Both the position numbers and the translations under genes were made by a program. From Candidatus Bathyarchaeia archaeon (GTDB taxonomy: Archaea; Thermoproteota; Bathyarchaeia; Bathyarchaeales; Bathycorpusculaceae), in contig JAVZLM010000002.1 in NCBI GenBank assembly GCA_038883775.1, positions 32,001 to 96,000 of the forward strand: DNA of 64,000 bases, in the 5' to 3' direction. The notes beneath the pieces are model-generated. The model made no database searches and was not told where the DNA came from. It was given only the letters and a program-made list of their open reading frames with translations. Of the stretch, positions 34,082-39,345 are shown piece after piece; within the stretch, counting starts at the first letter, position 1; the number at the start of each line of letters is the position of its first letter.

Positions 34082-34156
34082 GCTTTAACTCATGGAGTAA
34101 CCAATAAATATATGTCTATAACGGTTTCTTATACGCATGCTAAGGAGGCTTTGAGG

Positions 34157-34447
34157 GTGCCAGCAATAGAAGTTGGCAGAATCTGCGTTAAACTGAGTGG
34201 GCGAGAGGCTGGAAGAAAATGCGTCATAGTTGATATTATCGATAAAAGCTTCGTATTAATAACTGGACCAAAAAATCTTACTGGCGTGAAGAGACGGCGG
34301 GCTAACATCAACCACATTGAACCCCTTCAAGAAAAAATAGCCATTAAGCGTGGAGCTTCAGACGAAGAAGTAACGGAAGCCCTAAAAGCTGCTGGCAAGC
34401 TAGAAGAGATGGCGCAGATGGTTAAGCCAGCCATTGGCACAGTTTAA
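34157..34447 (+). CDS. rpl14e: 50S ribosomal protein L14e
   Basis: [35 protein letters not shown]...GVKRRR.N..H.EP; GTG start after GGAGG. Confidence 0.95.
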
Positions 34448-34502: not shown

Positions 34503-35533
34503 ATGCCAAGAACCGTTGCTCCTTGGGAAATTACACGCCAACTGTTAGTGAAGGCTGAGGATAAAACAAATCCACACTACGGGCACAAACCAGAAGAGAG
34601 ACCAGCAGAAGAGTACATAAAATATGGCGTCATAAACCTTGACAAGCCAGCGGGTCCAACAAGCCATGAAGTTGCTGCTTGGGTTAAACGCATCCTCAAC
34701 CTTCAAAGCGTTGGTCACGGCGGGACTCTAGAGGTTTAAAAGGCTTAAACCAGAGAAATCCCAAAGTGACCGGCGTCTTACCCATAACCATAGAAGAATC
34801 CAGAAAAGTCGTTCAAGCCTTACTCTATAGTGGCAAAGAATACGTTTGCCTAATGAAACTTCATGGAGACGTGACGGAGCAGAGGGTTAAAGAGGTCTTA
34901 AGCGAGTTTGAGGACACAATTTATCAGAGGCCACCCTTAAGGGCTTCTGTTAAACGTCAACTGAGAACGCGGAAAATCTATTACATAGACTTTCTTGAAA
35001 TGGATGGACGCAATGTCCTCTTCAAAGTTGGCTGCGAAGGAGGAACATACATAAGGAAACTGTGCTTTGACATAGGAGAAGTTTTGGGATGCGGGGCCCA
35101 CATGCAAGAACTCCGCAGAACAAGGGCTGGACCCTTCACTGAAAATGGGGATATTGTAACATTGCATGATGTGGCTTACTGGTTTATGGAATGGCAAAAA
35201 CAAAAAGACGAGCGGCTCCTGCGCAAATTTATCCAACCTATGGAGAAGGCTTTAGCGCTGATTCCAAAAATTTATGTTAGAGATTCGGCTGTTGACGCCA
35301 TCTGCCACGGAGCAAGCCTAACAGCGCCTGGAGTTTTATCCCTCGAAACTGGAATAAACAAAGATTCCATTGTTGCCATCCTCACCTTAAAGGGCGAAGC
35401 AGTCGCCCTCGCTAAAGCCACAACCTCAACAGAAGAAATCTTCAAAATGGAGCATGGAGTTGTCGCCAAAACTGAAAGAGTATTAATGAAGAGAGGCACA
35501 TATCCAAAATGCTGGAAAAGCGGCGAAATATAA
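34503..35533 (+). CDS. cbf5: H/ACA RNA-guided pseudouridine synthase Cbf5, join(34503..34731,34758..35533), 334 aa after splicing
   Basis: Exon 1 LDKPAGPTSHEV..GHGGTL; exon 2 PKVTGVLP, QRPP..ASVKR, GTYIRKLC, PUA domain; intron removal restores GHGGTLDPKVTG. Confidence 0.95.
34732..34757 (+). other. 26-nt BHB intron in cbf5 pre-mRNA
   Basis: GGGA CTCT AGA GGTTTAA AAGGC TTAAACC AGAG AAA TCCC folds into helix/3-nt bulge/4-bp helix/3-nt bulge/helix. Confidence 0.93.
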
Positions 35534-36145
35534 ATGCAAAAGAAAAGCGTAAACCACTATTTCCAAGAACACCCAAAATCTAAGCTTAAGCTTGGAAAAA
35601 TTTGCACAAACCTCCGCGGAATCCCTTTCCAATTTCTAACAGCCTCAGGAGTTTTTTCCAAAAAGCGTGTGGATTTGGGCACAAGATTGCTCATCGAATC
35701 CATGATTCTCCCCGAAAAAGGATATGTTTTAGATATTGGGTGCGGTTATGGTGCTGTTGGAATTGCAGCGGCAATTTTCAGCCCTCACCTTAAAGTGTTT
35801 ATGGTGGATGTAAACGAACGTGCCGTATGGCTTGCAAAACAAAATATAAAAATAAACAATGCCAAAAATGCAGAGGTTAAACAAAGTAACCTATATGAGT
35901 CTGTGAAAAATTTAACTTTCGACTGTATACTTTCTAACCCTCCAGTAAGCGCTGGAATGAAAACCGTCAAAGCGATAATTGGCGAAGCGCCCAAACACAT
36001 GGCACAAAAAGCTCTATTTCAAATAGTGGTGAAATCCAAAATTGGAGGGAAAAATTTCCAAAATTTCCTATATGAAACATTTGGTAACGTCAACATACTT
36101 GCCAGAAAAAGTGGTTATCGCGTATTTATTTCTGAAAAAAGGTAA
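35534..36145 (+). CDS. Class I SAM-dependent methyltransferase (RsmC-like)
   Basis: HYF, SGVFS..VD.GT.LL, LDIGCGYG, SNPP. Confidence 0.9.
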   Translation: MQKKSVNHYFQEHPKSKLKLGKICTNLRGIPFQFLTASGVFSKKRVDLGTRLLIESMILPEKGYVLDIGCGYGAVGIAAAIFSPHLKVFMVDVNERAVWLAKQNIKINNAKNAEVKQSNLYESVKNLTFDCILSNPPVSAGMKTVKAIIGEAPKHMAQKALFQIVVKSKIGGKNFQNFLYETFGNVNILARKSGYRVFISEKR

Positions 36146-39081: not shown

Positions 39082-39137
39082 AAATGCTTAGAAACCATAA
39101 TAAACCAAGAAACCAAATTAAACATGAAACAAAACAT

Positions 39138-39248
39138 GCCGGGGTCTCCTAGTCAGGTATGGAGCAGGCCTGGAGACAAAAAAGCGTTAAAACGCCATTC
39201 AGCCTGTGGCCCTTCGGGGCCGCGTGGGTTCAAATCCCACCCCCGGCG
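39138..39248 (+). tRNA. tRNA-Ser(GGA) with a 25-nt intron (39176-39200) at position 37/38
   Basis: GCCGGGG/CCCCGGC acceptor stem, CAGGC-CT-GGA-G^A-GCCTG, long variable arm GGCCC-TTCG-GGGCC, TTCAAAT, G discriminator. Confidence 0.92.
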
Positions 39249-39345
39249 TTTTCTTGATACTTTTTGGACTTTACACAGCAATGTTTTAATTATCAGTGTG
39301 CTTTCCCTTAGGAAATATGGCAAGATCGTATTCAAGGTGAATTGA

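Follow-up and report, generated by a model that had tools for sequence, protein, structure and literature searches.

The window analyzed here is a stretch of 64,000 nucleotides (nt) from a Candidatus Bathyarchaeia archaeon (GenBank assembly GCA_038883775.1, contig JAVZLM010000002.1). It corresponds to G000:C2:32001-96000, where G000 is the genome as a whole (1.69 Mb in 28 contigs, 91% complete, 5% contamination). On its forward strand, between positions 34503 and 35533, the gene cbf5 is spread over two open reading frames (ORFs). The first (34503 to 34739, 78 amino acids [aa]) terminates at a TAA within an insert, and the second (34766 to 35533, 255 aa) has GTG as its start codon. The first piece matches the Pfam family DKCLD (E = 1e-21), while the second matches TruB_N (profile positions 20 to 149), TruB_C_2, and PUA. 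Solved Cbf5 chains are the best structural-chain matches of the first piece, which aligns to residues 7 to 81 of chain 2aus_C and ends at the leucine of GHGGTL. The residue that follows this leucine in the Cbf5 family, the catalytic aspartate, is encoded by neither piece.

Excision of 26 nt (34732 to 34757) rebuilds this residue. Exon 1 spans positions 34503 to 34731 and comprises 76 codons and the G that opens the catalytic Asp codon; exon 2 spans 34758 to 35533 and supplies the remaining AT, 257 more codons, and the stop. The boundary therefore falls between bases 1 and 2 of the Asp codon (G|AT), and the predicted joined junction (34731/34758) reads ACTCTAG|ATCCCAAA. The joined coding sequence of 1005 nt has no internal stops and encodes 334 aa with Asp as residue 77. 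Against the intact cbf5 of a relative (L012), the spliced product is identical at 256 of 336 aligned columns and shows no gap at the junction, and only in this spliced form is the catalytic motif GHxGTLD complete, within the architecture DKCLD, TruB_N, TruB_C_2, PUA. The unspliced frame runs into an in-frame TAA inside the intron (34737 to 34739) and stops at codon 79. The split gene is the sole TruB_N match genome-wide, and its exons share 60 to 96% protein identity among relatives. The closest named relatives of exon 2 (72 to 95% identical) are metagenome-assembled genomes (MAGs) of Candidatus Bathyarchaeia, Bathyarchaeota, or Bathyarchaeales, except for one "uncultured archaeon." An earlier reading of the letters alone, here called the original prediction, had proposed the two ORFs, the 26-nt excision yielding a 334-aa protein, the early stop and missing Asp of unspliced RNA, and a bathyarchaeal host; each of these points is borne out by the comparisons above.

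The RNA around the junction is predicted to fold as a bulge-helix-bulge (BHB), the geometry recognized by the tRNA splicing endonuclease EndA. The minimum free energy (MFE) structure given by RNAfold for positions 34712 to 34772 is a helix-bulge-helix-bulge-helix of the strict hBHBh' form, identical in its helices and bulges to the canonical BHB drawn in the original prediction. In the outer helix, GGGA (34722 to 34725) pairs with TCCC (34759 to 34762). In the central 4-bp helix, the exon strand CTCT (34726 to 34729) pairs with intron AGAG (34752 to 34755), an arrangement found by RNAalifold as well. The inner element (34733 to 34751) is a 7-bp helix (34733 to 34739 with 34745 to 34751) closed by a 5-nt loop (34740 to 34744). 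Between the helices lie a 5' bulge, AGA (34730 to 34732), and a 3' bulge, AAA (34756 to 34758); under the rule quoted in Yokobori 2009 (PMC2738675), cuts after the second base of each bulge would fall after 34731 and 34757. An extra outermost 6-bp helix, GGTCAC (34713 to 34718) with GTGACC (34766 to 34771), is also part of the MFE fold. The whole junction fold has an energy of −25.2 kcal/mol, whereas shuffles average −11.9 (z = −5.01), and none of 200 shuffles was as stable.

A genome-wide scan of split genes for BHB motifs, one of the checks suggested with the original prediction, covered both strands of the genome for strict hBHBh' motifs with introns of 14 to 150 nt. It returned 15233 motif matches, 289 of them with at least 60 open codons on each side, a loose filter for split ORFs. 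The cbf5 site ranks first by structure energy and is the sole scan site whose local MFE structure equals its BHB. No second convincing BHB-split gene was found in the genome by this strict scan and the inspection of three other candidates. These three, ranked 2, 8, and 17 and picked for their short inserts, were rejected as further split genes: one lies inside a continuous 457-aa ORF, another joins two adjacent genes, and a third joins an Sm-like ORF to an unrelated frame.

The fold is also maintained by compensatory change. When pairs were anchored on the splice sites, 1407 of 1504 cells in Bathyarchaeia were standard pairs, compared with 36 to 56% when the 3' partner was slid by 1 or 2 bases. 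A broader alignment used 99 of the 162 distinct junctions (every third closer Bathyarchaeia locus and all other families and classes, nine classes in total, with the 75-nt intron of L167 left out). Here 87.1% of cells were paired, against 29 to 52% after sliding; double-sided changes occurred in 141 cells, against 38 in shuffles, and the covariation score was reached by none of 500 shuffles. The central helix is paired in 99.2% of cells, and the pair between columns 18 and 58 is CG in 70 junctions and UA in 26. All four anchored pairs of the inner helix have changed on both sides while 92% of its cells remain paired, and the outer helix is paired in 83%. RNAalifold, to which no structure was supplied, predicted the central helix, both 3-nt bulges, and the inner helix, and placed the outer helix one base out of register. 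Covariation in relatives, proposed beforehand as a way to check the intron, is thus present. The outermost helix (34713 to 34718 with 34766 to 34771) is paired in 78.5% of cells with little covariation and is absent from the RNAalifold prediction; it is weakly supported outside close relatives and lacks support as a conserved trait.

To describe how widely the insert is kept, junctions were read at the sequence level in three sets of loci, and, since the first two share some loci, distinct sequences were counted as well. The insert is present in 25 of 30 loci from relatives of the same order, in 77 of 80 loci on contigs of named MAGs, and in 32 of 40 loci from other families of Bathyarchaeia. 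The last set includes L134 (G064:C10), in which the insert flanks a run of N with an identical exon-intron junction on either side, a scaffolding duplication at the intron. With L134 omitted for this reason, 133 Bathyarchaeia loci carry the insert and 16 do not (n = 149); after the addition of L249, 134 of 150 have it at exactly this site. Loci free of the insert encode the Asp by an ordinary GAC or GAT, which means that loss of the intron has been precise.

The intron-bearing Bathyarchaeia loci represent 120 distinct junctions. Insert lengths range from 11 to 41 nt and are multiples of 3 in 31 of the 120. The 5' bulge is AGA in 104 of these junctions and the 3' bulge is AAA in 95; the central helix is fully paired (4/4) in 118 to 120 of them. 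By our own anchoring, 78 junctions form a strict BHB, a single helix is weaker in 36, and the remaining 6 are relaxed. The shortest inserts found, the 11-nt mini-introns of L116 (G043) and L153 (G233), leave no room for the inner helix, and their 5' cut site would sit in a hairpin loop (bulge-helix-loop form). Codon usage reflects the structure, too. Among 132 listed intron-bearing Bathyarchaeia genes, 125 encode the Leu that precedes the splice site by CTA or TTA and 7 by CTT, but none by CTG or CTC; intronless genes use all of CTG, CTC, CTT, CTA, TTA, and TTG. Synonymous sites on the exon strand are constrained in intron-bearing genes.

These observations bear on whether the gene is spliced at all. 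The locus could in principle be a pseudogene, or a two-piece gene with separate 78-aa and 255-aa products, and the two ORFs, the usable GTG start, and the many 255-aa models in databases are what such a gene would look like; a start codon (ATG, GTG, or TTG) lies within the first six codons of exon 2 in 130 of 171 intron-bearing loci. We consider this very unlikely. An exact BHB cut is the only way to rebuild the catalytic codon missing from both pieces. The GTG at 34766 is simply where PKVTG has its conserved Val, and substitutions in the insert covary in the manner of an RNA structure. Conservation across classes would not be expected of a pseudogene, and the genome has no intact copy at any other locus. 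The database models have a simple origin: gene callers start at the GTG, the Val of PKVTG, and so drop exon 1 and the Asp. Of the 7548 relatives of exon 2 in the database, the best 120 all measure 255 to 258 aa, and the named ones are annotated "H/ACA ribonucleoprotein complex subunit 4." The original prediction had expected annotation pipelines to miscall the gene as a pseudogene; the miscall occurs, although in these 120 best matches it takes the form of a truncated protein of 255 to 258 aa and not of a pseudogene flag.

Beyond Bathyarchaeia, cbf5 was found in 297 of 301 sampled genomes of the phylum. We fetched 89 junctions from other classes, chosen partly by open-frame length and hence not a random sample, and grouped families into classes by searches centered on other genomes. 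The insert is at the same base in 48 of these 89 loci and absent in 41. It was found in all sampled loci of the classes of G235 (3 loci), G237 (6 loci), and G233 (1 locus, a single-genome class). Other classes are mixed: 8 loci with and 2 without the insert in the class of G245, 10 and 4 in that of G306, 12 and 9 in that of G239, where the intronless ones look like Thermoproteales, and 6 and 5 in that of G255, where the intronless families fit the literature pattern for Pyrodictiaceae and Ignicoccus. The class of G231 (ten families, ammonia-oxidizer-like) has it in none of 21 loci. We inferred the labels "Sulfolobales/Desulfurococcales-like," "ammonia-oxidizer-like," and "Thermoproteales-like" in part from the match to the published pattern of presence and absence. 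Two insert-bearing loci stand outside this tally of classes: L199, from an unassigned family, and L190 (G256:C32), a second cbf5 in a genome of another class, which is 65% identical to the query and far nearer to Bathyarchaeia than the genome's own copy on C10; the 2.6-kb contig that bears it is probably contamination. With Bathyarchaeia included, the intron thus occurs in members of eight classes of the phylum. Open-frame length, used as a proxy for the intron, agrees with this distribution but undercounts, as the long-framed genes of G071 (390 aa), G188 (412 aa), G353 (337 aa), and G562 (319 aa) carry the insert; the statements about classes therefore rest on junctions read at the sequence level.

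The same distribution speaks to the possibility that the insert is an assembly or sequencing artifact of this MAG. Contamination of 5% and the scaffolding duplication at this very place in L134 are reasons to ask, but independent assemblies from many studies have an insert at the same base, and their lineage-specific sequences retain the pairing, leaving an artifact with a vanishingly small probability. Ribosomal bypass of the 26 nt, by a translational hop or frameshift, would suit a short, structured insert across which the frame must shift by 26 nt; however, inserts at this site range from 11 to 75 nt, and the take-off and landing codons are not conserved, whereas the BHB geometry recognized by EndA is. 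Splicing has moreover been demonstrated at this codon in Crenarchaeota (PMC2738675), and we regard bypass as extremely improbable. The longest insert found at the site, 75 nt in L167 (G328:C10), exceeds the 44-bp maximum quoted in Yokobori 2009 (PMC2738675).

Some cbf5 genes of the phylum are interrupted in a different manner. In G032, of the same order (L206:301-2919, an 873-aa frame), and in G496, of the class of G255 (L207:3-2354, minus strand, a 784-aa frame), an in-frame intein with Pfam matches to Intein_splicing and LAGLIDADG_3 lies between TruB_N and TruB_C_2. The BHB intron is absent from the G032 gene, with TruB_N positions 1 to 149 in one piece. The G496 frame does not open until TruB_N position 17, a late start shared with intron-bearing genes, and this gene may contain both an RNA intron and a protein intein. 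The cbf5 of G048 (797-aa frame) may be a third intein case.

In its layout, the element resembles the introns at position 37/38 of archaeal pre-tRNAs. Both combine a helix of exon bases, a 4-bp helix between exon and intron, a pair of 3-nt bulges, and a helix inside the intron; once spliced, the RNA has a 7-nt loop closed by the outer helix, and EndA and RtcB are the presumed enzymes. Unlike a pre-tRNA intron, the cbf5 intron lies in a coding frame, and the exon strand of its helix is also bound by the codons for GGTLD. A broader parallel is the unconventional splicing of HAC1/XBP1 in eukaryotes, in which a short mRNA intron is removed without the spliceosome by a dedicated endonuclease, followed by tRNA ligase, although there the nuclease is Ire1 and not EndA, the motifs are other stem-loops, and the process is stress regulated. 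RtcB itself is reported to act in XBP-1 splicing (PMC8718801). The other described mRNA substrate of archaeal EndA is the BHB intron in the 5' untranslated region of HVO_1309 in Haloferax volcanii (Schwarz 2020, PMC7714728). In contrast to the cbf5 intron, it lies in an untranslated leader and splits no codon, and its host is a euryarchaeon with a homodimeric enzyme (JBC 2023 review).

The closest known system is the crenarchaeal cbf5 intron, and the claim of the original prediction that BHB introns occur at this position in Crenarchaeota agrees with the literature. According to Yokobori 2009 (PMC2738675), which cites earlier reports of cbf5 pre-mRNA introns (Watanabe 2002, Yoshinari 2006), the introns of Sulfolobales and Desulfurococcales split the same codon after its first base, measure 16 to 44 bp, and are cut by a hetero-oligomeric EndA between bulge residues 2 and 3, with cDNA support for splicing that is partly unpublished. 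The same paper reports the intron as absent from Thermoproteales, Cenarchaeum, Nitrosopumilus, and Korarchaeum and traces its origin to an ancestor shared by Desulfurococcales and Sulfolobales, followed by two or more losses. The intron described here shares the gene, the insertion point, the size class (26 nt against 16 to 44 bp), the lack of an ORF, and the bulge 2/3 cut boundaries with these introns; its host genome likewise has two EndA paralogues, and precise, lineage-specific losses are seen in both cases. It differs in its host, Bathyarchaeia, which lie outside the two orders of the published origin, in that splicing is here a prediction, and in its strict hBHBh' form, compared with the mostly unconventional BHBs described for crenarchaeal cases. 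The type of intron is already known; what is new is its range, which is much wider than published. The restriction to Desulfurococcales and Sulfolobales does not hold, since Bathyarchaeia and members of seven further classes carry the intron, a statement about range and not about mechanism. In the openly available literature searched, we found no report of a cbf5 intron outside Crenarchaeota sensu stricto.

The genome encodes the enzymes that such an intron would need. Two EndA-family genes (two PF01974 matches above the cut-off; L031:1171-1785 and L032:1228-1782) lie on contig C5. The closest chains of the 204-aa protein are 3p1z_B, 2cv8_A, and 3ajv_B (E = 2e-43 to 6e-42), and it keeps the catalytic Tyr, His, and Lys; the 184-aa paralogue has Thr at the aligned His position. 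Two such paralogues are the pattern of an (αβ)2 enzyme, which is the most likely form here, and only (αβ)2 and ε2 EndA are reported to cut noncanonical introns (PMC5829648). The ligase RtcB (PF01139, twice above the cut-off) is present as two full-length matches, G000:C4:30187-31497 and G000:C13:11400-12710 (595 and 593.5 bits), a pair that may reflect genuine gene duplication or, given the 5% contamination, the presence of another strain in the bin. With introns allowed, ARAGORN called 10 of 44 tRNAs in the genome as intron bearing.

One of the intron-bearing tRNA genes lies in the window itself: a tRNA-Ser(GGA) with a 25-nt intron at 39137 to 39249 (G000:C2:71137-71249), called by ARAGORN with introns allowed and missed by the default scan of the window, which gave four tRNAs. 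Closer to cbf5, a gene for a 111-aa KOW-motif protein, ribosomal-protein-like, lies upstream (34112 to 34447), and a small-domain methyltransferase gene (Pfam MTS, E = 3e-43) lies downstream (35534 to 36145), its start codon abutting the cbf5 stop.

Together, the observed anatomy, conservation, and covariation of the element, the host enzymes, and the single gene copy make it very probable that cbf5 pre-mRNA contains a tRNA-type BHB intron, with EndA predicted to cut both bulges and RtcB to ligate the exons. The GGGA and CTCT of exon 1 would pair with the start of exon 2 and the 3' part of the intron, respectively, presenting two 3-nt bulges separated by a 4-bp helix. EndA, most likely the (αβ)2 enzyme assembled from the C5 paralogues, would cleave after the second base of each bulge, and RtcB would join the exons and probably circularize the 26-nt intron. 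Ligation would restore the GAT of the catalytic Asp and hence the 334-aa Cbf5, while unspliced RNA could yield only the 78-aa stub, and anything translated from the GTG at 34766 would lack the Asp.

Several points weigh against this account. The EndA heterotetramer and its cutting of cbf5 RNA are predictions from sequence. Some family members have an imperfect outer helix, the pair beside the 3' bulge being formed in 77 of the 99 aligned junctions. Gar1 was found in the genome, but a search with PF04135 recovered no Nop10 from this 91%-complete assembly, so that the H/ACA set seen here is a partial one; as the Nop10 protein is short and the assembly incomplete, we draw no inference from the miss. 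A search of sequencing runs for the stretch returned none recorded as RNA; two hot-spring runs labeled metatranscriptomic are probably DNA and contained fractions of 0.19 and 0.12 of the words. Among the short contigs of relatives from the runs searched, no joint skipping the 26 nt was found, a result neutral on splicing; one loose end in these contigs resembles the intron of a relative.

A further reading concerns what the BHB is for. The motif might act mainly as a cleavage switch, with the EndA cut mostly destroying cbf5 mRNA and coupling the level of Cbf5 to EndA and RtcB, and with splicing minor or conditional. Down-regulation of the synthase by the intron had been proposed earlier, as noted in Yokobori 2009 (PMC2738675), the yeast enzyme starts endonuclease-initiated mRNA decay (JBC 2023 review), and the persistence of the intron across eight classes suggests that it is more than neutral. 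Yet productive splicing would still be needed, because the genome has no other TruB-family gene; both exons are strongly conserved as protein; and the intron is dispensable, as many lineages have lost it precisely with the gene intact. We therefore hold a predominantly destructive role to be unlikely. Regulatory cleavage of this kind would nonetheless be compatible with splicing by EndA and RtcB.

The intron is probably older than the published account implies. Its constant phase and similar sizes, together with its occurrence in eight classes, favor antiquity over repeated insertion at a favored site. Tentatively, and with clearly less than even confidence, we suggest a single ancient insertion that predated the split of at least eight classes of Thermoproteota (TACK) and was kept at the catalytic codon because it couples production of Cbf5, the rRNA/tRNA pseudouridine synthase, to the activity of the tRNA-splicing enzymes. 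In that event, few mRNA introns known from Archaea would be as old, precise loss would have occurred many times (the ammonia-oxidizer-like class and Thermoproteales-like families being examples), and the published gain in the ancestor of Desulfurococcales and Sulfolobales would be a sampling artifact.

The range described here extends the one well-documented archaeal coding-region intron from two orders of cultured thermophiles to Bathyarchaeia and members of eight classes in all, and it revises the place and time of the intron's origin. It also exposes a systematic annotation error, in that marker-gene sets, pangenomes, and structure predictions use truncated Cbf5 from these lineages. The approximately 180 junctions form a natural data set of gains, losses, and covariation from which rules for EndA substrates may be drawn. 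Because the catalytic Asp is rebuilt only by splicing and the genome has a single TruB-family gene, H/ACA-guided pseudouridylation by Cbf5 would depend on the tRNA-splicing enzymes, and in archaea that rank among the most abundant in sediments, an essential RNA-modification enzyme would thus require the tRNA-splicing machinery.

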